The notes under the pieces: generated by a model
The model's database searches: none
The model's input: only the letters and a program-made list of their open reading frames with translations
Told to the model about the DNA's origin: nothing
Shown here: positions 473 to 54,005 of the stretch, piece by piece
How the letters are laid out: the number at the start of each line of letters is the position of its first letter
Position numbering within the stretch: position 1 is the first letter of the stretch
Translations under genes and position numbers: made by a program
Source of the DNA: Trueperaceae bacterium
Lineage (GTDB): Bacteria > Deinococcota > Deinococci > Deinococcales > Trueperaceae
Direction of reading: 5' to 3'
NCBI GenBank assembly: GCA_965213925.1
Contig: OZ243927.1
Location: forward strand, 3,424,001 to 3,488,000
Length of the DNA: 64,000 nt

Positions 473-1270
473 TCAGGCTTGTTGGCTGGGCGCGTTTTTG
501 CCTATAGCATCGAGCGGTAACATCTCGGTCAGACGCGCTGACTCGGTTAAACTGCTCTTGAGGTACTGTCTCCCCGCCAGGTAAACGAGCAGCCACTGCA
601 CCGACGCGAGGGCGTTGTAGATCATGTCGATGTTGTAAGACTCGGGCAAACGCACGTAAAATAGATCGGCGAGAAACCACGCGAGGGTCGCGCCGCTCAG
701 CAGTAAAAAGGGTCGGGTGAGGCGCAGCTCGGCGCGTGAGAACCAGAGCGCCGCCGCAGGCAACACCAGCAAGGCGCTGAAGTACGTTTTGGCGTTGTCC
801 GCGACCGATATACCTAATTCGAAGTCCAGGATGACGCCGAGCACCAACGCGACGACAAAGGTGACTGAGGAAACCAGTAAGATGAGCTGCGCGATAAGCT
901 CGATGAAGATCGCGCCTCTGAGCCGCCTATAGACGATAAAGATGGCGAGCGACAAGGCGTACGCCCACGGCGCGCATTCGAGCGTCCACAGTGTCGCGCC
1001 CGCTAGCTCTAGCGCGAGTGGCATCTCGCCCGTGACGCTCCCGTAGACCCAAGCCAAGTTTGCGAAGGCAGTGAGCAGCGCCGCGAACGAGAGCGCGTAG
1101 AGTCCGCGCTGCCAGCGCAGCCCCTGCGCCGCCTTGCCAAAACGAAAAAGCGCCAGGGAGCTCAGCGCCATGAGCAGCGTATAGCTCACCTCCCCGAAGA
1201 GCGAAGGTAACAGGCCAGCCATCACCAGAAGACAAAGACCGACAACTAATCCGTAAGCAGCGATCATCAC
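473..1270 (-). CDS. Multi-pass membrane protein, translationally coupled to the upstream GGDEF/EAL gene
   Basis: 265 aa with about 7-8 hydrophobic segments; ATGA overlap at 1267-1270. Confidence 0.7.
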   Translation of the reverse strand: MMIAAYGLVVGLCLLVMAGLLPSLFGEVSYTLLMALSSLALFRFGKAAQGLRWQRGLYALSFAALLTAFANLAWVYGSVTGEMPLALELAGATLWTLECAPWAYALSLAIFIVYRRLRGAIFIELIAQLILLVSSVTFVVALVLGVILDFELGISVADNAKTYFSALLVLPAAALWFSRAELRLTRPFLLLSGATLAWFLADLFYVRLPESYNIDMIYNALASVQWLLVYLAGRQYLKSSLTESARLTEMLPLDAIGKNAPSQQA

Positions 1271-3957
1271 GCCACCCTTTCTGCGGGCTTTCCCGCTCTG
1301 ACCAATTGAGGCGTTTCGGCTAACGTCAACCGGACGACCTCACCTAGAGTTGTGGGCTTGGAAAAGAGGTAGCCCTGCCCGTAAGGGCAGCCGAAGCCGC
1401 GTAAGACTTCGAGCTCGCGTGCGTGTTCGATCCCCTCCGCGACCAGGTCGAGCGACAGCGCCTCGGCGAGCGAGACGATGGTCCTGACGATCTCGAGCGT
1501 GCGCCTGTCCTCGCCCATCTTCTGAATAAAGGCGCGGTCCACCTTGAGGGTGTCGATCGGCAGGTCCTGGATGTAGGTCAGCGACGAGTAGCCGGTGCCG
1601 AAGTCGTCCATAACGATCTTGACGCCTAAAGCTTTGAGCTCCTCTAGGGGGGCGCGCGCACCGCCGGTGCTCTCGATCACGGCAGTCTCGGTGATCTCGA
1701 GCTTGAGCTGAGCGGGGTCGACCCCCGTCTCGAGCAAGACCGCCCTGACGTCGGAGACGAGGTGGGGGTGCAGCAACTGCTTGGCGGAGAGGTTCACGCT
1801 CATGGTAAAAGCGTCCCCGAGTTCGGGGTGCGCAGCGAGCGCGCTGCACGCCTCCTTGAGCACCCACAGCCCGAGCGGGACGATTAGACCGGAGTCCTCT
1901 GTGGCGGGGATAAACTCGGCGGGCGAGACGAAGCCGCGCTCGGGGTGACGCCAGCGCAAGAGCGCCTCTGCCCCGACGACAGCGCCGCTACCTAGCGCGA
2001 CGATGGGCTGGTAGTCCAGGTAGAAGTCGCCGCGCTCCAGCGCGTAGCGCAGGTCGGTCTCGAGGCGGTGGGCGGCGACCGCGGCGGCGAGCATCTGCTC
2101 GTCGTAGTAGAGGTGGGGCGCGCCGCTACGCTTCGCTTCGTACATGGCGACATCGGCGTTTTCTAGCGCTGTGTCAGGACCCGCGCAGCCGAGCACATCC
2201 TTGACGAGGCCGATGCTGAGACTTGGGAAGAGCGTTTCACCGGCCAAGTCGAAGGGCTCGGCGATCCGCCGCTCGAGCCGCGCGACCGCCGCCTCGAGAC
2301 TCTCCGCTGACGTTCCGTTCAACAGCACGACGAACTCGTCGCCGCCGAGCCGCGCGACGAGGTCGTCGCCCCGTACGCAGCTCTGCAGCCTGGCGGCGAT
2401 TTCCCTTAGCAGCAGGTCCCCGACCTTGTGCCCCAGGCTGTCGTTGACGAGTTTGAAGCGGTTAACATCCATAAAGAGGAGGCTCACGCTCTCCCCGCCG
2501 CCACACTCGAATAGCTGCTCCAGGCGCGCCTGGAGCATCAGCCGGTTGGGCAAGCCCGTGAGCGGGTCGAAGACGCCCCGCATCGAGATGTCCGTGAGCG
2601 AGCCCGCGACGCGTTCGGGAACACCCGCGGCGTTACACACCGACTTGCCGCGCACCAGCACCCAGAGGTAGTCGCCGCCCTTCGTCCTGAGCCGGTGCTC
2701 GTCCTCGAAGAACTCGCTTCTGCCCGCGATGTGCTCTTCCAGCTTCCGCCGCACGCGCGGCTCATCGTCTGGATGCACACGCACTTGCCACGTGTCGGTC
2801 GTGCCGACCCTCTCGCCCTCGTCGAAGCCGAGTAGCTCGAACCAGCGCGAAGAGTAGAGCACCTCGCCGCTGCCGAGGTCCCAGTCCCAGAGCCCGTCGT
2901 TGACCCCTTCGGCGACCAGGCTGTAGCGCCTCTCGCTCTGCGTGAGCTGGCAAAAGGTCGTCTGCAAGGCTTCTAACATGCCGTTGATGTAGCCGCCGAG
3001 CTGCGCGATCTCGTCAACGCCCTCGATCTCGATACGCCCGCCCAGATCGCCCTTTCGCGTGATCTGCTCGACCCAGCGGCTGAGACGCGTCAAGCGTGAG
3101 AGGAGCAGGCGTTCGACGAAGACGAGGGTCAGCACGCCGAAAGCGAGGCTGACGGTTATGAGGAGCGCCAGGAGCGCGCCCGCGCCCCGGGCGCTGCTAC
3201 GGTAGAGCGCCCGGGGATGGTTGATCGCCACCTTTATGGGGACGTCCGCGGTGAGGCTCGGCAGGGCGGCGCTCAGCCGGATGTCGTTGCCGCCTATCTC
3301 GGCCGGCGTTTCGGCGGAGGCGGTCGCGGCCTCGCCCCACAGCAGCTCGGCGTTTACGAGCGTATCCGCCGTTAGCTGCTCCATCAAGGCGTCGTCGAGG
3401 TAGCGCACGGCTAAAAAGGCCCCGTTGACTGCGCCGCTGACCTCGTCCGAGACCGGCGCGCTGACGACTTGCGCCGCACCCTTCGGGAGATACAGGTAGC
3501 CCGCTAGATCCACCTCGGCGTCGGGTGTGCTGAAGAGGTTTGGCATCTTGAGGAGCGCCTCGAGCGTGACTTCGTCTAGGGGTACGGCGTCTTCAAGCGC
3601 AGCGTCATACGCCTCCGCGTAGACGGGCTGGGCTTCTAAATCGGTGATGAGCAGGGCGTCGATATCGAACGTTTCGAAAACGTAAGCGCCCAGGTTCTCG
3701 TCGCGGTAGGTGGCGCTCCTCGCCTCCACAAAGTCATAGGTTTCGTCCCAGAACGCCCAGTCGTGAACAAAGGTTTGCGTGGTCGAGAGCGCATTTTGTA
3801 AATTTCTCTCGGCGCGCGCCAAGTCCCGCTCCGCCGCACGCACCTCCGCCTCGGACACGGACTTGACAGAAAACGCCCAGATAATCGCGGCGAGCGTCAC
3901 TACGAGCCCGGCGAGCACCACGCTGACCGCGCCGCCAATATGGAGCCGCAAGCTCAC
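1267..3957 (-). CDS. CHASE4-HAMP-PAS-GGDEF-EAL diguanylate cyclase/phosphodiesterase
   Basis: DWAFWDETYDF (CHASE4), DEIAQL (HAMP), GLWDWD/VHPDD (PAS), RLGGDEF, AEALLRW, DDFGTGYSSL. Confidence 0.93.
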   Translation of the reverse strand: MSLRLHIGGAVSVVLAGLVVTLAAIIWAFSVKSVSEAEVRAAERDLARAERNLQNALSTTQTFVHDWAFWDETYDFVEARSATYRDENLGAYVFETFDIDALLITDLEAQPVYAEAYDAALEDAVPLDEVTLEALLKMPNLFSTPDAEVDLAGYLYLPKGAAQVVSAPVSDEVSGAVNGAFLAVRYLDDALMEQLTADTLVNAELLWGEAATASAETPAEIGGNDIRLSAALPSLTADVPIKVAINHPRALYRSSARGAGALLALLITVSLAFGVLTLVFVERLLLSRLTRLSRWVEQITRKGDLGGRIEIEGVDEIAQLGGYINGMLEALQTTFCQLTQSERRYSLVAEGVNDGLWDWDLGSGEVLYSSRWFELLGFDEGERVGTTDTWQVRVHPDDEPRVRRKLEEHIAGRSEFFEDEHRLRTKGGDYLWVLVRGKSVCNAAGVPERVAGSLTDISMRGVFDPLTGLPNRLMLQARLEQLFECGGGESVSLLFMDVNRFKLVNDSLGHKVGDLLLREIAARLQSCVRGDDLVARLGGDEFVVLLNGTSAESLEAAVARLERRIAEPFDLAGETLFPSLSIGLVKDVLGCAGPDTALENADVAMYEAKRSGAPHLYYDEQMLAAAVAAHRLETDLRYALERGDFYLDYQPIVALGSGAVVGAEALLRWRHPERGFVSPAEFIPATEDSGLIVPLGLWVLKEACSALAAHPELGDAFTMSVNLSAKQLLHPHLVSDVRAVLLETGVDPAQLKLEITETAVIESTGGARAPLEELKALGVKIVMDDFGTGYSSLTYIQDLPIDTLKVDRAFIQKMGEDRRTLEIVRTIVSLAEALSLDLVAEGIEHARELEVLRGFGCPYGQGYLFSKPTTLGEVVRLTLAETPQLVRAGKPAERVA

Positions 3958-4456: not shown

Positions 4457-4891
4457 ATGGATGCATTTATTCCCCCTCCAGCACAATCGACGGGCGTTTT
4501 TCATACCTTAGGTCTCACAACCCGACCGCATGATCTAATCAAAGTGGTGAAAGGCGGTCTATCTGTTCAAGTCTTTCGCGTATTAGCCGAAACGCTGGGC
4601 GTCAGCGACGCGGTACTCGCGAATTTAGCAGGCATCAGCGGCACAACCTTGACCCGCCGCAAGCGCGCAGGGCAGCTGACACCCGACGAGAGTGAGCATG
4701 TGCTCAGGATTGCCAACCTACTAGAACGCGCAGCACAGGTGTTCGAAGACGTCGGTGACGCAGCGGAGTGGCTCAAAACGCCTAACCTCAGCCTCGGCAA
4801 CGTCACGCCGCTTAGCTATGCCGACACGGAAATAGGTGCCCGCGAGGTCGAGAACCTACTCGGTCGGATAGACTACGGCGTCTACAGTTAA
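4457..4891 (+). CDS. Xre/MbcA/ParS-family antitoxin
   Basis: HTH-like N-terminus, C-terminal AAEWLKTPNLSLGNVTPL...GAREVENLLGRIDYGVYS; directly upstream of a RES gene. Confidence 0.9.
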   Translation: MDAFIPPPAQSTGVFHTLGLTTRPHDLIKVVKGGLSVQVFRVLAETLGVSDAVLANLAGISGTTLTRRKRAGQLTPDESEHVLRIANLLERAAQVFEDVGDAAEWLKTPNLSLGNVTPLSYADTEIGAREVENLLGRIDYGVYS

Positions 4892-4917
4892 ATTGCCCTT
4901 CACCTTACGCAATATGT

Positions 4918-5403
4918 ATGGCTGACGTCCTCACAGCCTGGCGACTTGTCAGACCTAAATATGGCAACCAGGCTGATGCTTTTAGCGGTGAAGGTTCGCG
5001 TCTCTTCGGTGGGCGTTGGAACTCGCCGGGTGTGCGTGTTACTTACGTCAGCTCGAGTCTGTCGCTCGCCACACTAGAGACGCTCGTCCACGCGGACAGG
5101 CGGCGCTTCGAGCGAGACTACGTCGCCTTCAAGCTCTACCTACCTGAAGCGCTCGTGCTCGAGCTGCGCAGTGAGGATTTGCCCGAGGAGTGGCGGGCGA
5201 GGGCCGTGAGCGAGGGCGCGAGGCAAGTTGGAGATGCGTGGCAAGCGGCGCAGGCGAGTGTCGCCTTGTCTGTACCTAGCGTAATCGTGCCTGCGGAGCG
5301 GAACTATCTGCTCAACCCTAGACACCCGCAGTTCAGCGAGCTAACGATTGAAGACCCGCAACCTTTTCGCTTCGACGCACGGCTCGCTGACAAAGGACGA
5401 TAA
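4918..5403 (+). CDS. RES-domain toxin (NAD+-targeting family)
   Basis: AFSGEGSRLFGGRWNSPG, SLATLE, VPSVIVPAERNYLLNPRHP motifs. Confidence 0.9.
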   Translation: MADVLTAWRLVRPKYGNQADAFSGEGSRLFGGRWNSPGVRVTYVSSSLSLATLETLVHADRRRFERDYVAFKLYLPEALVLELRSEDLPEEWRARAVSEGARQVGDAWQAAQASVALSVPSVIVPAERNYLLNPRHPQFSELTIEDPQPFRFDARLADKGR

Positions 5404-5512
5404 AGTCATACTCGCGGCTTTTCATGATCGAGAAGGTACCGCAGTCGCAATGCGTGTGGTCGGGTAGCAGGAGACCGTCACTGGCCTCCCGCCCCTAAGA
5501 GCCGTGCGTGCG

Positions 5513-7948
5513 GTAGGGTAGGATGCCAGCGAGCTGCCTATCAAAGATAGCGCTTTTCCAACATCCCCCCTCCGAACCCCGCATGACCGCTTTCCGTGTC
5601 ACGGGGCTCTCCAGTAATCTCAACATGAAAGTCCTTTCCCGTGGTAGTGCCCTTTATGGATGTCTTGGTGGCAGGTGAGGCAGACCACCAGCGTCTTGCG
5701 TCGGCGAGCCGACATCCTTTGCATCCATTCGGGCCGTGACTTACGCCCTCTTTGTTCAAGGTCTGCCAGTTTTCGGACGTGATGCACTTCGACGTGCTCC
5801 ACCGACCCACAAAGCTCACAGCTTTGCGCTAAAAGGCGGTCCACCACTTCATTACGCCCGTTCCAAATCTTACTGTTCTGGTTGTCGTCCAAGGCTACCC
5901 ATTTGTTCCACCGTAACGGGATGCCGCCAAAGTGGGTGATGAGTGGCTTCTTTTTAGGACCACGGTCCACTTTGACTTGAAGGACTTTATAGCTGCCCTC
6001 CTTGAGGTCGATGGTGGTGCGGTAGCGCCGATAGATTTTCTGGCAACTCGTCCTGAACTTATTCGCCAGCGTTTTCACTAGCGAGAGTTCTGTGACGCGC
6101 TTGAGTCGGCCCAGCGTGTGGAGGTTGTAGGCCATGCGGTAATACTGCACGACCCCGCGGTATTCCGCTTGATATTGGCTGACGATGCTGTAAGCATCGC
6201 TGCTGAGCCTTTGTGGGAGGTGAATGGGCTTGCCGCGTCGCATGTACTTGGCGCAGTGCGCTTTCATGACGTGCGACGGTACCCGGAGTCCGACGCTGCC
6301 GTTGATGCAGCGTTGTCCCCGGTGGTCGTGTTTATCGTCAGCGTGAAGAATGTGGACCTCATAGCCCAGGAAACGCGCTTTCTGCGTGCGCGCGTGGGTC
6401 AGCAGGGTCTTATCCTCGCTAAGCTCAAGCTTGAGTTCGTCGCGTAAGAAGGCGGCAATCTCTTGCTTGATAGCCACGGCCTCGTCTTTTGGCCCTTTCA
6501 GCCCCAGCAGAAAGTCATCGGCATACCTTTGGTACCACAATCGCCGGAAGTTCGGGTCATCGGGGTCGCGCGACGGCATTGTCTGGGCCTGCTGGCTCAG
6601 TTGCCGCGCGGTCTCCCAGTTCCCTGCTTTCCGAGCGTCGTGAGCGGCTTTGGCGATGGCGACATACGGGGGGTAGGTCTTGCGGCGTTCGCCGCGTGTG
6701 TAAGCTGGTATCAGTTCGTGCTCGACAAACTTGTCCAGCCTGTCCAGAACCAGGTTGGTGAGGATTGGACCGACAATCGACCCTTGCGGCACACCGCTGT
6801 AGGTCTGGTGAAAGGTCCAGTTCTCCAGGTAGCCAGCTTCGAGCAGCCCCTTGATAAGCCGCAGGAAGCGGTTGTCGTGGAAGCTCTTCTGCAAGATGTT
6901 CAACAAGACATCGAAGTTAATCTTGTCGAAACACGAGCAGATATCTCCCTCGATAAACCACTTTGTACCTCGACCCTCTTGGGTGACTTTGCGCAAAGCT
7001 GTGTGGCATCCCCGTTTCGGTCGAAAGCCGTGAGAACGGTCGCTGAACCGCGGTTCATAATAGGCTTCCAGGATGGAGCGGATAACTTCTTGAAGAAGTT
7101 TGTCCGACCAGGAAGGCATCCCTAGAGGCCGCATCTTGCCATTCTTTTTGGGAATGTAACGGCGTCGTACCGGCGTCCACCGATACCGCTCTTGGCGTAG
7201 CGCCTCGATGATGGTATCAATTTTCGCTAGGGACATCCCGTCCACGGTTTCGTCCGAGGCACCTGGTGTCAGTGCGCCTTCGTTCTTGTAGAGCTTGGCG
7301 TAGGCGCGCAGGTAGAGGTCAGGCCGGTAGAGTAGGCGATACACCCTTTTAACCGGCAGGCCACGCTGGCCGCGTTCACGTAGGATGGTGAGTACCGTTT
7401 CGGCGGTTCGCATCTCGCGTACCTCACAGTTCCTTTCCATCATGATTACCTGGTCTCCTTCGCCCTGCGAACGGCTCTCCCGCTCTCCCTGGTGGGGCGT
7501 GACGCCCACGACTACTACGAGACCTCCGTTACCTTAGGACTCGCGTCCCTTAGGCAATCCCGTGTTTCGTCACTGAGGAACGTGCTAGAACGACTTAGGC
7601 TCGCCACTCATAGCCTTGGATGAACTCATTGTTCATCGCCCATCAAGCAGAGCGTCATTTGGACGAAACTTGAATCCAAATGTCCTGATGGCGTCGGTGT
7701 ACAGACGTGCTACCGACGGGTGTGCGTGACCACCGCTGGCTATTGGCGTTCAAACAATCCAGTCTTAGCCTTATCATTCAGGCGTTGCAGAGCCGCATCG
7801 TACACGTCTTCCTTTGCGCTCCGCTTTAATGCCATGCTCTTGTCCCCTCCCTCCTTTCGAGCTCAGGTTAGGCATCCGCCTCGGGGTCGTTTGCCCTGAA
7901 CCCCGGCCAACTCCGTTGGCAATTCACTCAATGCGCACCACGGCGCAC
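5513..7948 (-). mobile_element. Inner group II intron (LtrA/mitochondrial-like lineage) inserted in domain V of the outer intron
   Basis: 5' GTGCGCCGTGG at 7948; domain V GAGCCCCGTGACACGGAAAGCGGTCATGCGGGGTTC; 3' ...ATCCTACCCTAC at 5513. Confidence 0.9.
5620..7413 (-). CDS. ltrA: Group II intron reverse transcriptase/maturase with C-terminal HNH endonuclease
   Basis: RPLGMPSWSDK, WFIEGDI, GVPQGS, RYADDF, CELCG..EVHHV..CLTCHQDIH; ATG 7413 follows a GAGGT RBS (ORF track extends to 7509). Confidence 0.95.
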   Translation of the reverse strand: MRTAETVLTILRERGQRGLPVKRVYRLLYRPDLYLRAYAKLYKNEGALTPGASDETVDGMSLAKIDTIIEALRQERYRWTPVRRRYIPKKNGKMRPLGMPSWSDKLLQEVIRSILEAYYEPRFSDRSHGFRPKRGCHTALRKVTQEGRGTKWFIEGDICSCFDKINFDVLLNILQKSFHDNRFLRLIKGLLEAGYLENWTFHQTYSGVPQGSIVGPILTNLVLDRLDKFVEHELIPAYTRGERRKTYPPYVAIAKAAHDARKAGNWETARQLSQQAQTMPSRDPDDPNFRRLWYQRYADDFLLGLKGPKDEAVAIKQEIAAFLRDELKLELSEDKTLLTHARTQKARFLGYEVHILHADDKHDHRGQRCINGSVGLRVPSHVMKAHCAKYMRRGKPIHLPQRLSSDAYSIVSQYQAEYRGVVQYYRMAYNLHTLGRLKRVTELSLVKTLANKFRTSCQKIYRRYRTTIDLKEGSYKVLQVKVDRGPKKKPLITHFGGIPLRWNKWVALDDNQNSKIWNGRNEVVDRLLAQSCELCGSVEHVEVHHVRKLADLEQRGRKSRPEWMQRMSARRRKTLVVCLTCHQDIHKGHYHGKGLSC

Positions 7949-7983
7949 ACTTTCACCGCACACGGCTCAAGCCAATCACGAAG

Positions 7984-8118
7984 CTACCGCGATAAGCTCG
8001 TAGTAGCCCTGAAGATTCGCCCTCTCAGATTGCGAACCCGCCAATTGACAGCTCGCCAGTTCACAGCGTGCCAGTCCGTAGGTCCTTCGGTTTCGTTTGC
8101 AGAGCTTCGGGCTCGCAT
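7984..8118 (-). pseudogene. 44-aa remnant of the outer intron's RT ORF (N-terminal RVT_N-like segment)
   Basis: MRARSSANETEGPTDWHAVNWRAVNWRVRNLRGRIFRATTSLSR*; the W..(I/V).W....V..L..RI..A pattern of chloroplast-like IEP N-termini, located just before domain V. Confidence 0.75.
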
Positions 8119-9060
8119 CTAACTTCCCCTTAGTTGGCAACCTTCAGAACATCTCTCTAGGAGATTGACCAGTCCCACGTCAGCACCCTTTCGGGTTGAG
8201 TATCGGCTCTATCTAGCCCCTTATGATTTCGGGTCGCCTTTCGGCGGCTAGCCTTCGCTTCTTGGGACCTCCTATGCCCGCTGGAGCGTTCGGCGTTCCT
8301 TACGGTTCGCTTACCTGCAACAGGACTCCAACGGGGTTTCCGTGTTCCACTTGTGTGAGCTGCGACCGGGTTAGGCGTGCTCTCTACTCCGGGGTCATGG
8401 TGTCCTCGTGCAGAACGCGCGTACTCTCTGCACCTGTTGAGGCGAGATACCTTATCCTTAGCCTCGACCCGACCATGCCTTATCAACCATCCTTCGACAA
8501 ACCGAACTAACGGAGCTTTGACCGAGCATTCACGTTCGTTCGCCTTACCGGTCTTTCCCTCACCCGAGTCTCTACGATGGTTTAGATTCTCTTAGGCTTT
8601 ACCTCCAGCTTCACACCTTGCCATTACTGGCAACGCATGTGGAAGTCGGGAATGAGCCTGGACACTGGCTCAGAGTTCTTTTCCTCCTTCCTAACTCACT
8701 CACTTCAAGCGACTTCACGTCGCACACGCGCGCGTTAGTCGCACAATGGTTCGTGTGTTGAAAAAGGGTTAAGGGGAAGGTCGAATAACGATGTAATACG
8801 GCTTTCGGGTAACTCCCCTAGGGATTACCTCGAGCGTAGCGAGTAGAAAGAACTACGGATTTCAATGAGTGCGTTCGGACTTCGGTGAAACCCACTGCTC
8901 GTCACTTTGTGGTGTCATGTTGATAGAGCACATAAGAAGCTCAGCTGAGCGCTAGTTCGGCTACAAAGATACTTGTGGTTGTACTTAGCCACATGACGGT
9001 ATACTCTGGGCATCCAAGGTTTGAAGACAAGCCTAGTTCTTGCCGAGCGGAGGGAGTCCA

Positions 9061-11970
9061 ATGGGTAGAGAAGTTTTTCGTTTCCACATCGTCAGACCAC
9101 CAGACGAAAATTTTTTAGAGAAGTTGGGTATTCTCCTCAACCCTGAGGATAGAGAAACTCCTTCTATGAGAGAACTTAGAGAGGCGAAAACACGCGAGGA
9201 GGCGGAACGAGCTGCCACGCGCAACAAAGCTTCAGACGAGTATCTAGACCCTGAGGACGTGCCCGACAATTACAAAACGTTAGCCGAGTGGCAAAAGCAA
9301 AATCCCCACGCACCTCAGGAGCAGGTAGCTAAGGAGGCAAGCATCATCCTCGAGCGCGACCCGCAAGAGGTTGTGGCTAGCGAGGCCTTCCAGTCTCTCC
9401 TCGCTAGGGGAGCAGCTAGCGAAGCCAGCGATTTAATACTAGGTGAACAAGGTTCATCGAAGCAGGCCGTAAAGTATCTACTTGCCGTCAGTAAAGCAGC
9501 TGGCAAGCGTCCCGTCCTCCCCCTCAATCTTAAGTTTGCACCAGGTCCACAGAGCAACACAATGTCTGAGCCTGAGACTTCTAAAATAGATTCGCCGGTC
9601 CCAAGCTTGGTTCAGCTTCAGGCATTGAAGCGGCGTCTGATAAGCTTAAGCCCGTCTAGCCCAACACTCACACTTCAGCAGCAAAGATTCATGCAAGATG
9701 TAAGCCTCCCTCAAGACGACACGACCGGAGATAGTCCCGGCAGAGCAGAACCTCCGCAGCCTGTAGTTATCAGTGACGTCTCCCTCAAGGAGACTGAGGT
9801 CAGCCAACTAAAATCTCTTCAGCTCAGCGCTGACGCATCCATTTCAGAGGCAGTGAATGAACTCGATAGGCAAATGCTGCTTAAGGCCGAGGTCTCAGTA
9901 GCTCCCGCGAGTGCACCTGTGGTCCGGAGTGGGATGCTTGTGATGAGTGCGACCGCATCTGCTGGTGGACCGCAAGCGCTCACTGAATTCAAGGGGGGCT
10001 ACGTTCAAGGGTTTAAGGTCTCTGACCTCGAGGTAGCGGAGCGTGACCTAAAGAGATACGAAGCAGGAGAGATTGCTCACATCGAGAACGCCCTTATGGG
10101 CGAGCGCCGGGTGAGGGAGCATATTAGAAATACGCTACGCGAGGACGTCACCTTTGTGGAGACAAGTATCCTTGAGGCTACAGAGGAGGAACTCCAGACA
10201 GAGGAGAGATTTGGTTTAACGAGAGAAGCGCGTAACGTGCAGCGCTCAGAGGTCGAGAAGCGTGCCGGCTTAAAGCTGGATGCGAGCTACGGACCCTCGG
10301 TAAACGTAGAGACCTACGCTGACTTTTCCTTAACCACGTTTAGTGAGTCTGTCAGCACGACCGCTAGCGAATACGCGAAGACGGTGTCCAGCTTGGCAAC
10401 TGCCCGGATACAGCGTACCTTTAGGGAGCAGCGCCTTACCCGCCGAGTGGAGTCGGTCGAGGAGACAAACTCTCACGAGATTGACAACCGGAACGCTGAC
10501 GGTCACACTGTCGGAATCTACCGCTATGTCGATAAGGTTTACAGCGTCCAGGTTCGTAACTATGGTGTTAGGCTAATGCTCGAGTTTGTCCTTCCTGAGC
10601 CAGGAGCTAATCTCCTGAGGATTGCTAGCCAACCCGTCGGTCAGGTGCTGGTTTTGGACAAGCCGGAGCCGCCGAGGGTGAATGGTAAACCTCTCGAACT
10701 ATCCGATATTGATCCAAATAACGATCTGTGGCGCGTCGTCGCGGCCCGGTATGGTGCCGCGGTCGAACCGCTTCCCGAGAAAAAGGTAGTCTCCCTGACG
10801 CTTAAGTTCGACGAGAAGCCTAACCTCGAGAGAGACGAGGTGAGCCGCCGCGTCGACTCGAATACGGACGAGATCCGGAGCGTTCAGGTCGTTTGGGACG
10901 AGGGCATACTCAAGGTTCCGGATGGTTACGAGGCGCTTAGGGTCTGGGGCACCTCCCTAGGTTTCAACACGACCATAGCTGTATCTTTCGACAAGCATAG
11001 AGCTGAGATAGTTGGGGCAAAACAGCATGTGAAAGTTTATGGTTCAGATTACGTCCGCACCGGCCAAATGCTGGGTGGCTTCAAAGTGCGGGCCGGGATG
11101 GGCCGGGCTGTTGACCTTATAGAGCGCTACGGTGCAGGCGGTGACCTGTACGTTTCGGCTATTTCGTTAGAGACAGAGGAACACAATTATCTCTCCATGG
11201 TAGGTTTCGTCGCCGCCGCTCATGGTCCCCTGGTCATCGAGGCTCTCTGCACACCTACGGAGGAAAGCTGGAACACCTGGCGTTACGAGGTATATACCGC
11301 CATCATGGAGGCGTACAGACAGCAGCAGGCAGCCTACCTAGAAGCGCTGGCTGCCGAAGAGGTGGCGCAAGGGACGAGCATTGACGGGCGCAACCCTGCT
11401 ACTAATCGAGAAGTTGAGAGGGACGAGATCAAGCGGGGCGTGGTCACCTTATTGCGCGGCAGCAAGCCCGACACGGGCTCACTTGCCCAGGATGGCTTTA
11501 GCCCTGACGTCGCGAAGGCCGCTGCACACGGACCCCTCATCAGGTTTTTCGAGACGGCTTTTGAGTGGGAGCACATGGTCTTCGAGCTAGCGCCCTACTT
11601 CTGGGCGAACCCGGATCGTTGGGACCAACTTCTCAAAGCCGACGATCCTGACCCAGAACATAGAAGGTTTCTTCAAGCGGGCTCAGCGCACGTCACCCTC
11701 CCGGTCAGACCTGGGCACGAGTTCTACGCCGCTGCGGCTGTCAGCTTGCTACAGATGACTGGAGGCTCACTTAAGCCTGAGCTATTTACTTCCGAATTAC
11801 CTAACGTCATCCTTCGCGAGTTGTTGGTCGCATCCTTGGAGGCTTCTATCCTCAGAAAGCAGAGGCAAACCGAAGGTCCCGTCGATGTAGGAAAGCCCTT
11901 CGAGGTGACCGTACCAACAAACCTGGTTATCTTGCAGGAGGGCTCGGACCTAAACGAGGCTAAGACGTGA
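9061..11970 (+). CDS. Large uncharacterised protein (~970 aa)
   Basis: Long ORF; blocks YEAGEIAHIENALMGE, GIYRYVDKVY..QVRNYG.RLMLEF..PEPG and FFETAFEW...PYFW; no function assignable. Confidence 0.75.
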   Translation: MGREVFRFHIVRPPDENFLEKLGILLNPEDRETPSMRELREAKTREEAERAATRNKASDEYLDPEDVPDNYKTLAEWQKQNPHAPQEQVAKEASIILERDPQEVVASEAFQSLLARGAASEASDLILGEQGSSKQAVKYLLAVSKAAGKRPVLPLNLKFAPGPQSNTMSEPETSKIDSPVPSLVQLQALKRRLISLSPSSPTLTLQQQRFMQDVSLPQDDTTGDSPGRAEPPQPVVISDVSLKETEVSQLKSLQLSADASISEAVNELDRQMLLKAEVSVAPASAPVVRSGMLVMSATASAGGPQALTEFKGGYVQGFKVSDLEVAERDLKRYEAGEIAHIENALMGERRVREHIRNTLREDVTFVETSILEATEEELQTEERFGLTREARNVQRSEVEKRAGLKLDASYGPSVNVETYADFSLTTFSESVSTTASEYAKTVSSLATARIQRTFREQRLTRRVESVEETNSHEIDNRNADGHTVGIYRYVDKVYSVQVRNYGVRLMLEFVLPEPGANLLRIASQPVGQVLVLDKPEPPRVNGKPLELSDIDPNNDLWRVVAARYGAAVEPLPEKKVVSLTLKFDEKPNLERDEVSRRVDSNTDEIRSVQVVWDEGILKVPDGYEALRVWGTSLGFNTTIAVSFDKHRAEIVGAKQHVKVYGSDYVRTGQMLGGFKVRAGMGRAVDLIERYGAGGDLYVSAISLETEEHNYLSMVGFVAAAHGPLVIEALCTPTEESWNTWRYEVYTAIMEAYRQQQAAYLEALAAEEVAQGTSIDGRNPATNREVERDEIKRGVVTLLRGSKPDTGSLAQDGFSPDVAKAAAHGPLIRFFETAFEWEHMVFELAPYFWANPDRWDQLLKADDPDPEHRRFLQAGSAHVTLPVRPGHEFYAAAAVSLLQMTGGSLKPELFTSELPNVILRELLVASLEASILRKQRQTEGPVDVGKPFEVTVPTNLVILQEGSDLNEAKT

Positions 11971-16598: not shown

Positions 16599-16624
16599 TG
16601 CGTGTGATGCGCGCGTTCGTCGCA
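16599..16624. repeat. GCGCGC-core dyad site 6
   Basis: tgcg-tgtg-at-GCGCGC-gt-tcgt-cgca; accessory dyad from 16564. Confidence 0.85.
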
Positions 16625-48748: not shown

Positions 48749-49753
48749 ATGTGGGGTCACAAAGCACGCCGCAGGTCAAAGCTGGGGATGAGAACCGGTC
48801 TAACTTTAGGGGTCATTGTGGCTCTGGGTCTCTGTGCTCTCGCGAGCGTTTTGTACAACTCTAGCCCGGTCGGTCACTTCCGCACCAATGAAGGATACCG
48901 GATATACGCCGCCTCTTACGCCGCCGCGATGGAACAGCTACCCAGACCTACCCGAAGTATGGACGTAAAAACCGACTTCGGGACGGTCCGGGTTTATGAA
49001 TTTTCTTCTTCCCGGACGCGGGCGTTGACGCCACTCGTGCTTCTTCCCGGACGCGCTTCCGGAACACCCATGTGGGAGGCTAACCTTGCAAGCCTCGCCA
49101 AAGAGCGAGACGTTTATGCGCTTGACGCTCTGGGCGACGCGGGAATGAGCGTGCAAACGCGAGAGATCAAAGATGCCTCCGACCAAGCCGCTTGGCTTGA
49201 GCAGGTTTTTGTCCAACTCGACCTGTCCCAGGTGCATCTGGTCGGGCATTCCTTCGGCGGTTGGTCTGCCGCCAACTACGCGGTCCGTTACCCCGAGCGT
49301 GCGGCGTCACTTATGCTGCTCGAGCCCGTGTTCGTCTTTCAGGGTCTGCGATGGCAGGTTTACGTTAAATCTATCCCGGCGTCTGTGCCGTTCTTGCCGC
49401 AGAGCTGGCGAGACACCATGCTTAGCAACTTTGGTGGCGTCGAGAAAGTTGATCACGACGACCCTGTCACCCGCATGATCTCCGATGCCGCAGAGCACTA
49501 CGCCGCAAAACTTCCGCTACCTCAGCGCCTTTCACAAGCGCAACTCCGCAATTTGCCCATGCCCGTCTACGTTGCGATGGCTGCCGAAAGCTCTTTGCAC
49601 GACGCAGCTGCCGCCACGCAGGTCGCTCGCAACAGCGTTCAGGACCTTCAGATTCGGAACTGGTCGGGGGCTACGCATTCGCTGCCGATGGAGTTTCCGG
49701 AGCGGCTCAACCGGGAACTCCTGAGTTTTATAGCGGCGCACGACCTGGAGTAG
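48749..49753 (+). CDS. Alpha/beta hydrolase (carboxylesterase-like) with N-terminal anchor
   Basis: LVGHSFGG, ATHSLPME. Confidence 0.85.
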   Translation: MWGHKARRRSKLGMRTGLTLGVIVALGLCALASVLYNSSPVGHFRTNEGYRIYAASYAAAMEQLPRPTRSMDVKTDFGTVRVYEFSSSRTRALTPLVLLPGRASGTPMWEANLASLAKERDVYALDALGDAGMSVQTREIKDASDQAAWLEQVFVQLDLSQVHLVGHSFGGWSAANYAVRYPERAASLMLLEPVFVFQGLRWQVYVKSIPASVPFLPQSWRDTMLSNFGGVEKVDHDDPVTRMISDAAEHYAAKLPLPQRLSQAQLRNLPMPVYVAMAAESSLHDAAAATQVARNSVQDLQIRNWSGATHSLPMEFPERLNRELLSFIAAHDLE

Positions 49754-50300
49754 TACGCTGGTTGGCACAAAACGTGGCGCTAGGCGATTTTCTTTGCTCC
49801 AAACAGCCTTGGTTGCTCAAAATGACTTAGAGAAAATAAGCTCGGAAGGGGCAAGGCGGCGCGCATCTCGGTAAACGACCGTTTTTGCAATCTGTTCAGC
49901 GTCTGGCTGTGACTGGTTAAACCACCTACGCTCATTGCAACCGAGTTTCACTGTCAGATTTATCGTCTAATTCTATCCACAGGGCAGGTCGAATACCGCC
50001 ACTATCTTTAGGTCTGCCATAGACACCATCGCCACGAACATAAATACGTCCGTATCTATTTACACTGGCAGCAGTGCGACCATAATAGCCTGGTGAGCGA
50101 AGTCGCCACCAATAGAATTTACTTTATCTTCTTTAGTGACCCCGACGGCAACAGTTAGGCAGTGCAGCAAATCTCGAGCCGCAGTTGAACGAGGTAATTT
50201 TTATACGTGTGAACAGGCCGAGGCGTGCGTAAGTCTTCTGCGTGTGGTCGGGTAGCAGGAGACCGTCACTGGCCTCCCGCCCCTAAGAGCCGTGCGTGCG

Positions 50301-52736
50301 GTAGGGTAGGATGCCAGCGAGCTGCCTATCAAAGATAGCGCTTTTCCAACATCCCCCCTCCGAACCCCGCATGACCGCTTTCCGTGTCACGGGGCTCTCC
50401 AGTAATCTCAACATGAAAGTCCTTTCCCGTGGTAGTGCCCTTTATGGATGTCTTGGTGGCAGGTGAGGCAGACCACCAGCGTCTTGCGTCGGCGAGCCGA
50501 CATCCTTTGCATCCATTCGGGCCGTGACTTACGCCCTCTTTGTTCAAGGTCTGCCAGTTTTCGGACGTGATGCACTTCGACGTGCTCCACCGACCCACAA
50601 AGCTCACAGCTTTGCGCTAAAAGGCGGTCCACCACTTCATTACGCCCGTTCCAAATCTTACTGTTCTGGTTGTCGTCCAAGGCTACCCATTTGTTCCACC
50701 GTAACGGGATGCCGCCAAAGTGGGTGATGAGTGGCTTCTTTTTAGGACCACGGTCCACTTTGACTTGAAGGACTTTATAGCTGCCCTCCTTGAGGTCGAT
50801 GGTGGTGCGGTAGCGCCGATAGATTTTCTGGCAACTCGTCCTGAACTTATTCGCCAGCGTTTTCACTAGCGAGAGTTCTGTGACGCGCTTGAGTCGGCCC
50901 AGCGTGTGGAGGTTGTAGGCCATGCGGTAATACTGCACGACCCCGCGGTATTCCGCTTGATATTGGCTGACGATGCTGTAAGCATCGCTGCTGAGCCTTT
51001 GTGGGAGGTGAATGGGCTTGCCGCGTCGCATGTACTTGGCGCAGTGCGCTTTCATGACGTGCGACGGTACCCGGAGTCCGACGCTGCCGTTGATGCAGCG
51101 TTGTCCCCGGTGGTCGTGTTTATCGTCAGCGTGAAGAATGTGGACCTCATAGCCCAGGAAACGCGCTTTCTGCGTGCGCGCGTGGGTCAGCAGGGTCTTA
51201 TCCTCGCTAAGCTCAAGCTTGAGTTCGTCGCGTAAGAAGGCGGCAATCTCTTGCTTGATAGCCACGGCCTCGTCTTTTGGCCCTTTCAGCCCCAGCAGAA
51301 AGTCATCGGCATACCTTTGGTACCACAATCGCCGGAAGTTCGGGTCATCGGGGTCGCGCGACGGCATTGTCTGGGCCTGCTGGCTCAGTTGCCGCGCGGT
51401 CTCCCAGTTCCCTGCTTTCCGAGCGTCGTGAGCGGCTTTGGCGATGGCGACATACGGGGGGTAGGTCTTGCGGCGTTCGCCGCGTGTGTAAGCTGGTATC
51501 AGTTCGTGCTCGACAAACTTGTCCAGCCTGTCCAGAACCAGGTTGGTGAGGATTGGACCGACAATCGACCCTTGCGGCACACCGCTGTAGGTCTGGTGAA
51601 AGGTCCAGTTCTCCAGGTAGCCAGCTTCGAGCAGCCCCTTGATAAGCCGCAGGAAGCGGTTGTCGTGGAAGCTCTTCTGCAAGATGTTCAACAAGACATC
51701 GAAGTTAATCTTGTCGAAACACGAGCAGATATCTCCCTCGATAAACCACTTTGTACCTCGACCCTCTTGGGTGACTTTGCGCAAAGCTGTGTGGCATCCC
51801 CGTTTCGGTCGAAAGCCGTGAGAACGGTCGCTGAACCGCGGTTCATAATAGGCTTCCAGGATGGAGCGGATAACTTCTTGAAGAAGTTTGTCCGACCAGG
51901 AAGGCATCCCTAGAGGCCGCATCTTGCCATTCTTTTTGGGAATGTAACGGCGTCGTACCGGCGTCCACCGATACCGCTCTTGGCGTAGCGCCTCGATGAT
52001 GGTATCAATTTTCGCTAGGGACATCCCGTCCACGGTTTCGTCCGAGGCACCTGGTGTCAGTGCGCCTTCGTTCTTGTAGAGCTTGGCGTAGGCGCGCAGG
52101 TAGAGGTCAGGCCGGTAGAGTAGGCGATACACCCTTTTAACCGGCAGGCCACGCTGGCCGCGTTCACGTAGGATGGTGAGTACCGTTTCGGCGGTTCGCA
52201 TCTCGCGTACCTCACAGTTCCTTTCCATCATGATTACCTGGTCTCCTTCGCCCTGCGAACGGCTCTCCCGCTCTCCCTGGTGGGGCGTGACGCCCACGAC
52301 TACTACGAGACCTCCGTTACCTTAGGACTCGCGTCCCTTAGGCAATCCCGTGTTTCGTCACTGAGGAACGTGCTAGAACGACTTAGGCTCGCCACTCATA
52401 GCCTTGGATGAACTCATTGTTCATCGCCCATCAAGCAGAGCGTCATTTGGACGAAACTTGAATCCAAATGTCCTGATGGCGTCGGTGTACAGACGTGCTA
52501 CCGACGGGTGTGCGTGACCACCGCTGGCTATTGGCGTTCAAACAATCCAGTCTTAGCCTTATCATTCAGGCGTTGCAGAGCCGCATCGTACACGTCTTCC
52601 TTTGCGCTCCGCTTTAATGCCATGCTCTTGTCCCCTCCCTCCTTTCGAGCTCAGGTTAGGCATCCGCCTCGGGGTCGTTTGCCCTGAACCCCGGCCAACT
52701 CCGTTGGCAATTCACTCAATGCGCACCACGGCGCAC
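50301..52736 (-). mobile_element. Inner group II intron, copy 2
   Basis: Same boundaries within domain V of the outer intron. Confidence 0.9.
50408..52201 (-). CDS. ltrA: Group II intron RT/maturase/HNH, copy 2
   Basis: Protein identical to 5620-7413. Confidence 0.95.
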   Translation of the reverse strand: MRTAETVLTILRERGQRGLPVKRVYRLLYRPDLYLRAYAKLYKNEGALTPGASDETVDGMSLAKIDTIIEALRQERYRWTPVRRRYIPKKNGKMRPLGMPSWSDKLLQEVIRSILEAYYEPRFSDRSHGFRPKRGCHTALRKVTQEGRGTKWFIEGDICSCFDKINFDVLLNILQKSFHDNRFLRLIKGLLEAGYLENWTFHQTYSGVPQGSIVGPILTNLVLDRLDKFVEHELIPAYTRGERRKTYPPYVAIAKAAHDARKAGNWETARQLSQQAQTMPSRDPDDPNFRRLWYQRYADDFLLGLKGPKDEAVAIKQEIAAFLRDELKLELSEDKTLLTHARTQKARFLGYEVHILHADDKHDHRGQRCINGSVGLRVPSHVMKAHCAKYMRRGKPIHLPQRLSSDAYSIVSQYQAEYRGVVQYYRMAYNLHTLGRLKRVTELSLVKTLANKFRTSCQKIYRRYRTTIDLKEGSYKVLQVKVDRGPKKKPLITHFGGIPLRWNKWVALDDNQNSKIWNGRNEVVDRLLAQSCELCGSVEHVEVHHVRKLADLEQRGRKSRPEWMQRMSARRRKTLVVCLTCHQDIHKGHYHGKGLSC

Positions 52737-52771
52737 ACTTTCACCGCACACGGCTCAAGCCAATCACGAAG

Positions 52772-52906
52772 CTACCGCGATAAGCTCGTAGTAGCCCTGA
52801 AGATTCGCCCTCTCAGATTGCGAACCCGCCAATTGACAGCTCGCCAGTTCACAGCGTGCCAGTCCGTAGGTCCTTCGGTTTCGTTTGCAGAGCTTCGGGC
52901 TCGCAT
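52772..52906 (-). pseudogene. 44-aa remnant of the outer intron's RT ORF, copy 2
   Basis: Same as 7984-8118. Confidence 0.75.
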
Positions 52907-53699
52907 CTAACTTCCCCTTAGTTGGCAACCTTCAGAACATCTCTCTAGGAGATTGACCAGTCCCACGTCAGCACCCTTTCGGGTTGAGTATCGGCTCTAT
53001 CTAGCCCCTTATGATTTCGGGTCGCCTTTCGGCGGCTAGCCTTCGCTTCTTGGGACCTCCTATGCCCGCTGGAGCGTTCGGCGTTCCTTACGGTTCGCTT
53101 ACCTGCAACAGGACTCCAACGGGGTTTCCGTGTTCCACTTGTGTGAGCTGCGACCGGGTTAGGCGTGCTCTCTACTCCGGGGTCATGGTGTCCTCGTGCA
53201 GAACGCGCGTACTCTCTGCACCTGTTGAGGCGAGATACCTTATCCTTAGCCTCGACCCGACCATGCCTTATCAACCATCCTTCGACAAACCGAACTAACG
53301 GAGCTTTGACCGAGCATTCACGTTCGTTCGCCTTACCGGTCTTTCCCTCACCCGAGTCTCTACGATGGTTTAGATTCTCTTAGGCTTTACCTCCAGCTTC
53401 ACACCTTGCCATTACTGGCAACGCATGTGGAAGTCGGGAATGAGCCTGGACACTGGCTCAGAGTTCTTTTCCTCCTTCCTAACTCACTCACTTCAAGCGA
53501 CTTCACGTCGCACACGCGCGCGTTAGTCGCAGCAGGATAGAGATTCTAAATGTCCGGAGAGCAACCCCTTTCCAAAAGAAAAGCCGTAGAAAATATCGAA
53601 CAAAGCTGAGCTTCAACGCGCCTTAGAAATCGGAAAACTATGAAAAATTTCCTCAAAGTCAAAGTGCTTCTTTTTACCCTTCACCACCAACAACTTCAA

Positions 53700-53990
53700 G
53701 ATAATGAGGCTGTTCTCGCGGCGCTCGAGCGTCAAGGTTAAGCCTACGGTTCAGAGTTAGCCGCCTACACCCACGAGGCCACGAACGGTGAGGTTAGCCT
53801 CTCCGCTAGCAGCCTCTACACCGGGTTGCACCGGCTCTGAGGCGAAGGGTTCGTCATGCGTCAGCCGGGCAGCGGTAAGAAGGGTCGGCGTGTCGACCTC
53901 TATACGCTAACCCCGAGTGCTCAGGAGGAACCAGAGAGACGACGCGTCCAGGACCAGCGTTTGATGAGCGGTATCGTCCGCTTGATCAGA
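53700..53990 (+). pseudogene. PadR-like regulator pseudogene
   Basis: VLAALERQG*AYGSEL...SSLYTGLHRL*GEGFV...RRVDLYTLT. Confidence 0.6.
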
Positions 53991-54005
53991 AAGGAAACAG
54001 AAACT

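Follow-up and report, generated by a model that had tools for sequence, protein, structure and literature searches.

An LtrA-like group II intron nested in domain V of an ORF-less group II intron in a Trueperaceae genome

Twintrons, in which one intron interrupts another, are known, and the classic case of insertion into domain V (DV) of a group II intron is the psbF twintron of the Euglena gracilis chloroplast, where the inner intron lies within the outer domain V (Copertino & Hallick 1991, as described in the accessible part of PMC8393795). Bacterial twintrons have been described as rare. Related nested arrangements include the TeI3/TeI4 twintrons of Thermosynechococcus elongatus, whose identical inner copies were interpreted as having entered scattered hosts recently and independently (Mohr, Ghanem & Lambowitz 2010; accessible part of PMC2882425), the nested introns of Methanosarcina acetivorans (Dai & Zimmerly 2003, as covered in the accessible part of the review PMC4424553) and the twintron of Trichodesmium erythraeum, for which sequential splicing was shown experimentally (Pfreundt & Hess 2015; accessible part of PMC4649490). 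Here we describe a nested pair of group II introns in a 64,000-nt stretch of a Trueperaceae bacterium genome (GenBank assembly GCA_965213925.1, contig OZ243927.1, positions 3,424,001 to 3,488,000; the whole stretch is referred to as the window), in which an intron encoding a reverse transcriptase (RT) interrupts domain V of an intron without an open reading frame (ORF). We consider it very probable that this bacterial twintron arose by two successive site-specific insertions, and that domain V is the normal homing site of the lineage to which the inner intron belongs.

The pair (5459..8725, referred to as copy A) is located on the minus strand. Its outer part is an ORF-less group II intron of 831 nt (8725–7949 plus 5512–5459), and its inner part is a group II intron of 2,436 nt (7948–5513) that interrupts the outer domain V between nt 20 and 21 of this 34-nt hairpin, 2 bases past the GAAA loop. 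The features of copy A, including the exon-binding sites (EBS), the intron-binding sites (IBS) and the intron-encoded protein (IEP), are as follows:

5451..5458, minus strand: 3′ exon of the outer intron, being the palindrome 3′ half CACACGCA; the stretch that is 100% identical to copy B stops here
5459..5512, minus strand: outer 3′ segment, comprising the domain V 3′ half (5499–5512) and domain VI, with the bulged A 7 nt from the end
5513..7948, minus strand: inner group II intron of mobile type, GTGCG...CCTAC; four 100%-identical copies in the genome, absent from the site in genomes G002, G001 and G282
5513..5611, minus strand: inner domains V and VI (RF00029, 46 bits)
5620..7443, minus strand: inner IEP of 607 aa (ATG at 7443, frame open from 7509) with RT, maturase and HNH endonuclease
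7664..7670, minus strand: inner EBS1 AGTTTCG in a hairpin loop, pairing with TGAAAGT over 6 of 7 bp
7720..7726, minus strand: inner EBS2 CGCACAC, forming 7 bp with GTGTGCG of the outer domain V; this region varies with the target in relatives
7949..7968, minus strand: outer domain V 5′ half GAGCCGTGTGCGGTGAAAGT, doubling as inner IBS2 (7957–7963) and IBS1 (7949–7955)
7949..8725, minus strand: outer 5′ segment, comprising domains I–IV and the domain V 5′ half; starts GTGCGAC, matches RF02012 and is 89% identical to G282
7984..8118, minus strand: 44-codon remnant of an RT gene (N-terminal RVT_N piece in domain IV, from Pfam and IEP alignment)
8416..8422, minus strand: outer EBS1 ACGCGCG, forming 7 bp with exon positions –7 to –1; in the hairpin loop at 293–318 of the minimum free energy (MFE) fold
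8506..8512, minus strand: outer EBS2 CGTTAGT, forming 7 bp with exon positions –14 to –8
8726..8743, minus strand: 5′ exon of the outer intron, being the palindrome 5′ half TGCGACTAACGCGCGCGT, with IBS1 at 8726–8732 and IBS2 at 8733–8739; the 100% repeat with copy B ends here

On the minus strand, GAGCCGTGTGCGGTGAAAGT at 7968–7949 is followed by GTGCGCC from 7948, so that the 5′ junction reads ...TTGAGCCGTGTGCGGTGAAAGT/GTGCGCCGTGG... at 7949/7948. The 3′ junction reads ...CCTACCCTAC/CGCACGCACGGCTCTTAGGGG... at 5513/5512, with CGCACGCACGGCTC occupying 5512–5499. The inner termini, GTGCG at 7948 and ...CCTACCCTAC at 5513, agree with the GUGYG/AY rule, and the RF00029 alignment places the inner domain VI pairs and unpaired A correctly. 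The outer intron starts with GTGCGAC at 8725 and ends with ...CTACCCGAC at 5459. The locus is a twintron in the sense that removal of the insert restores a continuous host intron, as is the case in three genomes with an empty site.

Insert-free copies of the outer intron, a search for which the original prediction had suggested, were found in the genomes G002, G001 and G282 (G000 denotes the assembly holding the window and C1 its contig, other G numbers denote compared genomes and L numbers fetched loci). The outer 5′ segment was searched in 61 related genomes, among which the outer intron was found in two other species of the genus, G001 and G002, and then phylum-wide in 364 genomes (17 with a match, G000 included). 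In the three uninterrupted copies GAGCCGTGTGCGGTGAAAGT is joined directly to CGCACGCACGG. G002 (L006) carries a 5′-truncated outer copy (88% identical) in which GAGCCGTGTGCGGTGAAAGT is followed by CGCACGCACGGTTC and domain VI (RF00029, 62.6 bits), G001 (L007) a smaller outer fragment with a likewise continuous hairpin (RF00029, 44.1 bits), and G282 (L082:1501-2330), from another genus, a full-length uninterrupted outer copy (89% identical; RF00029 64.7 bits, RF02012 37.9 bits). Because these empty sites lie at exactly this junction, the insertion position is unambiguous.

The outer ends at 8725 and 5459 are supported by EBS1 and EBS2, which pair with the 14 bases upstream, by the 97% homology to sister genomes, which ends exactly at the outer 5′ boundary (at 8726 between copy A and G001, at 53514 between copy B and G002), and by the RF00029 alignments of outer homologues, which terminate at ...CUACCCGAC and ...CUAUCCGAC. 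The junctions at 7948/5513 and 8725/5459 proposed by the original prediction, and with them its placement of the inner intron in domain V, were thus exact to the base. Contigs from two DNA runs of one sample, which are possibly the assembly's own source, span both junctions unbroken (records 5492–7359 and 7330–8041). No joint, and hence no DNA form without the inner intron, was found in these two runs, and the loose contig ends in them correspond to copies B, C and D (see below) and to other palindromes.

At gathering thresholds, Rfam reports four matches in the whole window, two per twintron. Those of copy A are RF00029 (domains V–VI) in the inner intron (5513–5611, 46 bits against a cut-off of 40, model positions 1–77) and RF02012 (group-II-D1D4-7) in the outer domain I (8588–8673, 39 bits against a cut-off of 34, with only 86 nt aligned), and those of copy B are RF00029 at 50301–50399 and RF02012 at 53376–53461. 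A search of 5300–8900 at E ≤ 1 returned nothing beyond the two gathering-level matches. Running Rfam models on each part, as had been proposed, therefore bore out domains V–VI of the inner intron and domain I of the outer intron, and left the inner domains I–IV unmatched at E ≤ 1. No outer domain V is reported by Rfam in the window for the element starting at 8725, as expected because its hairpin is split. According to a paper on an annotation pipeline, only domain V is reliably conserved, and twintrons were dropped (PMC4028801); the outer intron of a twintron is further described to go undetected (PMC8919778).

The assembly comprises 4.75 Mb in 6 contigs and is 96.9% complete. Self-comparison revealed that 5451–8743 is repeated at 50239–53531, over 3,293 bp, with 100% identity, in the same orientation and 44.8 kb away. 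Across the assembly, the inner intron occurs four times, always 100% identical (2436, 2436, 2436 and 1847 nt). Apart from copy A, these copies are:

50247..53513, minus strand: twintron copy B, with the inner intron at 50301–52736 and palindrome flanks at 50239–50246 and 53514–53531
C1:290735-293170: inner intron of copy C, before which the outer 5′ segment is reduced to its final ~142 nt (96%); the outer 3′ piece (89%) follows
C1:2670202-2672048: inner intron of copy D, 5′-truncated from nt 590 and followed by the outer 3′ piece (82%)

Copy B lies between the plus-strand ORFs 48749–49753 and 53856–54731. The remnants of copies C and D extend over C1:290593-293226 (cut within the outer intron) and C1:2670202-2672104 (cut within the inner intron). 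The first reading of the window had mentioned neither its second copy, nor the palindromic target and the lineage spread described below.

Each inner copy lies in domain V of an outer copy. The inner copies do not differ from one another, whereas the outer copies have diverged (A equals B, C is 96%/89% and D 82% identical) and two of them are fragments; the inner copies would therefore represent recent separate invasions of pre-existing domains V. Since even fragments served as hosts, what is targeted is the local domain V sequence rather than a working host. The recurrence of the same junctions four times in one genome, together with the domain V halves at the junctions of relatives (see below), excludes chance. 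An intron fragment that came to lie beside a separate complete intron, by chance or mis-assembly, would fit the single domain V–VI match that Rfam alone gives in the region, but has to face this fourfold recurrence, the contigs that cross both junctions, the empty sites in three other genomes and the same arrangement in dozens of unrelated assemblies. We regard this explanation as hardly credible, and it is refuted as far as sequence comparison allows. In the 61 related genomes, inner-intron DNA yielded no more than weak partial matches outside G000, and the copies in G027 lie outside domain V; a match in the unpublished G035 was left out.

The target of the outer intron is a 26-nt palindrome resembling repetitive extragenic palindromes (REP-like), located between genes. 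Its consensus, TGCGAC(G/T)AACGCGCGCGT plus NNNNNGCA, corresponds to the 18 + 8 bases common to the flanks of A and B. A strict pattern of this palindrome, with the two strands counted together, gives 63 matches that correspond to roughly 36 genomic places, many of which cluster around 3.40–3.49 Mb and 2.67–2.69 Mb of contig C1; unoccupied palindromes of ~26 nt lie in the window at 16599, 27977, 35823, 38421, 39822 and 63465. The palindrome 3′ half also follows copies C and D, as well as the uninterrupted outer intron of G282 and the outer fragment of G002. At the positions orthologous to site A in G001 and to site B in G002, the palindrome is unoccupied. An integron attC site was considered as the outer target and ruled out, the palindromes being 26 nt long and 1.4–24 kb apart.

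Around these sites, the 5′ flanks of the twintrons are 97% identical to sister species up to the intron boundary, whereas the 3′ flanks are non-syntenic, and the G001 3′ flank of site A maps to C1:2674588-2675987, 2.5 kb from the truncated copy D. Such breaks point to possible rearrangement or gene conversion via palindromes or intron copies. The identity of A and B has two possible readings, namely very recent copying of the outer intron followed by re-invasion, or gene conversion by which two twintrons already in place became alike. Of the 18 positions of the palindrome half at site A, 4 differ from the G001 orthologue within an otherwise 97%-identical flank, which hints at gene conversion without proving it.

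The identity of A and B would also suit a co-dependent composite, in which the inner LtrA-like protein splices or mobilises the outer intron, or in which the whole twintron moves as a unit; the two introns would then be partners, the inner providing the reverse transcriptase and the outer a landing site and palindrome targeting. An IEP usually acts only on the RNA of the intron that encodes it, which speaks against such sharing between two introns of different protein lineages. That A and B are 100% identical throughout their 3,293 bp, the outer intron and its 18 + 8 nt flanks among them, would imply that the outer intron was copied very recently, but gene conversion between two resident twintrons, ending with the homology, would equally give this identity. 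The profile RVT_1 matches in the genome only at the four inner-copy loci, so that these are the only RTs found, and no GIIM-type protein was found. On the other hand, a 2.4-kb insert in domain V should inactivate outer reverse splicing, the identical inner copies within diverged outer copies C and D suit separate invasion better, and no intron occupies C1:1240842, where the 18-nt 5′ exon site is perfect. Retromobility of a composite intron has been named as a possible route by Mohr et al. (accessible part of PMC2882425). On balance we find the composite improbable, and prefer two successive insertions.

The IEP of the inner intron was described in the original prediction as a full LtrA-like protein with RT, maturase and HNH domains, which agrees with its three Pfam matches: RVT_1 (E 4e-34), Intron_maturas2 (E 1e-10) and AI2M-like_HNH (E 8e-14). 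The YADD motif and the HNH cysteines are present in the translation. The best solved structure is LtrA (5g2x_C; E 9e-116, residues 31–597), and other group II RT structures match in the RT domain only, at 6e-35 or weaker; against TIGR04416 the protein scores 255 bits, under the 300-bit cut-off. These results suggest a mobile intron of LtrA-like, or mitochondrial-like (ML), type, the class being read from the protein and the mobility from sequence.

The outer intron, by contrast, has lost its protein gene. Its 44-aa ORF matches Pfam RVT_N only weakly and below cut-off (E 1e-4), and over 38 residues it shares 23 (E 3e-13) with the N-terminal end of the L085 IEP, which is of the RVT_N+RVT_1+GIIM type. 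Relatives that are ~70% identical continue past the stop of the window copy into a 535–537-aa frame with RVT_N, RVT_1 and GIIM, and a CxxC...HH motif is present where the fetched locus breaks off. Because the 44-aa remnant matches the N-terminus of a parent-type IEP, the outer intron is an ORF-deletion derivative; in the genome, RVT_N gives only three weak remnants, within outer copies A, B and C. That the outer intron is ORF-less with a 44-codon IEP piece, and that inner and outer introns are of different lineages (maturase domains Intron_maturas2 versus GIIM), accordingly held as first proposed. A chloroplast-like class is plausible from the sequence. The outer intron is read as IIB-type. 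Its RF02012 match is shared by L082 and L086, and two stem-loops at the 5′ base of its domain I fit, by eye, the description of IIB2 in PMC8643678.

With the inner intron removed in silico, the MFE fold of the 831 nt contains six domains in canonical order (DI 1–364, DII 391–449, DIII 457–555, DIV 578–743, DV 758–791 and DVI 795–826), with an energy of –325.4 kcal/mol against –288 ± 8.4 for 30 mononucleotide shuffles, and the rejoined domain V forms its hairpin, which carries a bulge of 2 nt. For domains I–III, we aligned the first ~570 nt of the window copy with G282 and three ~70%-identical relatives (G119, G362 and G173). The consensus of these five sequences has 145 pairs, with 93.3% of cells paired and 70 pairs showing compensatory change, although this covariation was counted on the same five sequences that were used to predict the structure. 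Sliding the partners by 1–3 columns left 9–17 compensatory pairs, and 0 of 500 shuffles reached the observed value. The outer sequence may fold as a complete ribozyme, as the original prediction requires: six domains are modelled, and the covariation in domains I–III is strong.

This fold bears on the possibility that the outer copies are dead relics, their domain V DNA being a neutral landing site without ordered twintron splicing. Such a view draws on the missing ORF and on the missing cognate maturase in the genome, on two of the four host copies, which are 5′-truncated and unable to be ribozymes yet were invaded, and on the intergenic position of the twintrons antisense to their neighbours; bacterial twintrons are described as intergenic or outside housekeeping genes (accessible part of the review PMC4424553). 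However, none of the six domains is missing from copies A and B or from the G282 copy, the DI–DIII consensus is paired in 93% of cells, the rejoined domains V and VI are canonical (homologues at 62.6–64.7 bits), and the identity of A and B speaks against long decay. We therefore rate dead relics as an unlikely account of the outer copies, albeit one with more in its favour than the composite, and retain two successive insertions into introns as the preferred reading.

The choice of domain V is not particular to this genome. The inner IEP has at least 8,000 relatives at E ≤ 1e-20, the best non-self ones among the matches listed being 66–76% identical. A scan of one genome per species gave 55 loci that encode a relative of the IEP, labelled as many cyanobacterial families, Alpha- and Gammaproteobacteria, Chloroflexota, Acidobacteriota, Thermodesulfobacteriota and Bacteroidota, and at least one junction was located in 43 of them. 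A DV-like flank was present on at least one side in 34 of these 43 loci and on both sides in 18. The 5′ flanks ended in a domain V 5′ half (RAGC ... GNRA plus 2–3 nt) in 22 of 29 testable cases, against 0.35% at random positions in the same loci, and the 3′ flanks started with a domain V 3′ half in 30 of 36, against 5.3%; the regular expressions behind these counts were author-made, and by eye L026, L037 and L052 are false negatives (DV-like on the 5′ side in L037 and L052, on the 3′ side in L026) and L064 is a probable false positive. Such expressions and folding were used rather than a fixed 34-nt pairing score, since hairpin lengths differ among relatives. Once rejoined, the flanks folded as a continuous DV-type hairpin with a 2-nt bulge in 18 of the 22 two-junction relatives, with the AGC triad in 17; those of L046 gave no hairpin.

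Among 41 flank ORFs scanned for host proteins, eight seem to encode complete IEPs, and others are fragments. An upstream protein of the RVT_N+RVT_1+GIIM type, with or without HNH, occurs in L022, L030, L037, L042, L044 and L058, and one with RVT_1, GIIM and HNH in L039; the host protein of L040 is of ML-type and guest-like in make-up (Intron_maturas2 and AI2M-like HNH). With these IEPs encoded upstream, the hosts are confirmed as real introns. In L039 and L040, the 3′ flank contains a second ...CCTACCCTAC end ~70–85 nt downstream, and the lineage may here invade its own kind. The host hairpin of L050 and L051 (Pirellulaceae metagenome-assembled genome, MAG) has the geometry of domain V, with a 2-nt bulge, a GAGA loop and CGC in the triad position, and no RT ORF was detected upstream in these two loci. 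The CGC of L050, where others have AGC, is presumably typical of class C introns, and this host may be class C-type or degenerate.

The loop assigned to EBS1 changes together with the exon:

L046: EBS1 CGCGTTT, 5′ exon AAATGCG
L050: EBS1 CGTCTC, 5′ exon GAGACG
L063: EBS1 AGTCTCG, 5′ exon CGAGATT
L024: EBS1 GGTTTCC, 5′ exon GGAAATC
L038: EBS1 CCTTTC, 5′ exon GAAAGG
L030, L039, L042, L044 and L058: EBS1 ACTTTC, 5′ exon GAAAGT

Since the loop tracks the exon across the family, including L046 and L063 outside domain V, it is identified as EBS1, and targeting is shown to occur by base pairing. In L063 (Rickettsia MAG), the relative is located at the end of an AbiEii toxin frame next to AbiEi, and EBS1 fits this site perfectly.

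A tree of the IEPs, made by a quick method (29 rows, 24 distinct; unrooted, modest support), places the window IEP in a clade of 18 rows (Shimodaira–Hasegawa-like approximate likelihood-ratio test, SH-aLRT, 91), of which 17, including that of the window, are in domain V and one is of unknown location; the 17 rows other than that of the window are all labelled cyanobacterial. The rows of L039 and L057 (branch lengths 1.7 and 2.4) are probably host proteins taken up by the longest-ORF rule and were disregarded. We tentatively propose, at somewhat short of even confidence, that an LtrA-like mobile lineage in at least five phyla is specialised on homing into domain V, with at least three host protein architectures as well as its own kind and dead fragments among its targets, and that the guest is perhaps the sole source of RT for an ORF-less host. 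No description of a bacterial intron lineage homing into domain V was found in the full texts searched, a scope outside which lie most subscription papers and the bacterial intron database.

The following history would account for these observations. A IIB-type intron that had lost its RT gene (831 nt) would have come to occupy the 26-nt intergenic palindrome, recognised via EBS1 and EBS2. A 2.4-kb LtrA-like (mitochondrial-like) intron would then have retrohomed into the DNA of the outer domain V, EBS2 pairing with the hairpin's 5′ strand, and EBS1 with the GAAA loop and two bases; retrohoming is the putative mechanism. The normal homing site of this lineage would be domain V of other group II introns, their most conserved sequence, so that any intron or intron fragment could serve as a harmless, multi-copy landing pad. 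Because the insert parts the strands of the distal domain V helix by 2.4 kb, the outer catalytic hairpin would not form before inner excision. Splicing would then proceed inside-out, with the inner intron removed and the domain V halves ligated first, and the outer ribozyme rebuilt afterwards; this order is what the arrangement of the sequence predicts. What the sequences show directly is the anatomy of the locus, the empty sites in other genomes, the pattern of copies, the target shared across the lineage and the covariation of EBS with IBS.

Besides the shared alignment behind the covariation count and the author-made expressions mentioned above, several points weigh against this history. 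The inner EBS1 has a G-G mismatch at –2 with this domain V, and this host would not be an ideal target because EBS1 better fits a GAAACT loop context. By eye, the first 3′ exon base, C, is unpaired with the A located 5′ of EBS1, unlike the delta-delta′ contact of IIA introns, and no Rfam family for domains I–IV matches the inner RNA even at E ≤ 1, so that the class of this RNA rests on its protein. The lineage also has relatives clearly outside domain V (L046, L054, L063 and the G027 copies), and L047, L048 and L064 give no clear domain V reading. When the flanks were rejoined, the domain V halves of L027, L037 and L038 were mismatched; such mismatched halves are as expected if inner copies in different hosts recombined. 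Finally, GIIM gives 0 matches in the 96.9%-complete assembly, so that no cognate maturase was found for the outer intron, and both twintrons are antisense to neighbouring genes; because of this antisense position and the missing maturase, the outer intron may never be transcribed or spliced.

Directly downstream of copy A, on the opposite strand, lies a pair of an Xre-family antitoxin and a RES-domain toxin (4457–5403, plus strand). The 5′ exon adjoins a 976-aa ORF (9040–11970, plus strand) that matches no Pfam family at E ≤ 0.01, and the stretch searched on this side (8726–10200) is 97% identical to G001. Further away, an 896-aa ORF (1267–3957, minus strand) is a candidate GGDEF protein, the motif being read from the translation alone.

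The documented bacterial targets in the literature covered are an intron protein gene or domain I. In Methanosarcina, the targets reportedly lie in intron ORF sequences and not in domain V. What is targeted here is the one sequence whose conservation is obligatory in all group II introns. Dozens of assemblies from distant phyla show this choice as well, and the exon-binding loops track the sequence of the host hairpin. If the reading is true, it would explain how one intron family travels between phyla, since any genome that bears a group II intron offers a site, and it would describe a natural RNA-guided element directed at other retroelements. It would also provide a natural system for obligatory inside-out splicing in bacteria, and a warning that the host intron escapes altogether any annotation pipeline that relies on domain V. 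Should the guest be the only source of RT for its host, the twintron would amount to a two-part retroelement.

Compared with known systems, as far as the accessible parts of the sources cited at the outset describe them, the locus is most like the Euglena psbF twintron in having its inner intron in the outer domain V, implying that the inner intron is removed before the outer one folds. The psbF twintron is, however, organellar, located in a protein-coding gene and made of small degenerate introns, whereas the present one lies on a bacterial chromosome, its exons are intergenic palindrome halves, and its inner intron is a full RT-maturase-HNH retroelement of a lineage found in domain V in numerous genomes. 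With TeI3/TeI4 it shares a conserved site in another group II intron, identical inner within diverged outer copies, and ORF-less partners. The inner intron of T. elongatus, however, is ORF-less and inserted in domain IV between the first two ATGs of the host protein gene, and a single IEP serves the two introns, which are closely related; in the present locus the protein is carried by the inner intron, the target is domain V, and the lineages of host and guest differ.

The Trichodesmium twintron is likewise bacterial and composed of two full group II introns, but its inner intron occupies the host's domain I, and the pair interrupts a conserved protein gene, whereas the present inner intron is in domain V, at an intergenic position, and is known from DNA sequence alone. 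The inner intron itself most resembles Ll.LtrB of Lactococcus lactis with its protein LtrA (PDB 5g2x), given the whole-length alignment of the IEPs and their shared make-up of RT, Intron_maturas2 and HNH. It differs from Ll.LtrB in that its IIA class is only presumed from the protein, and in that its target is not a host gene but the ribozyme hairpin of another intron.

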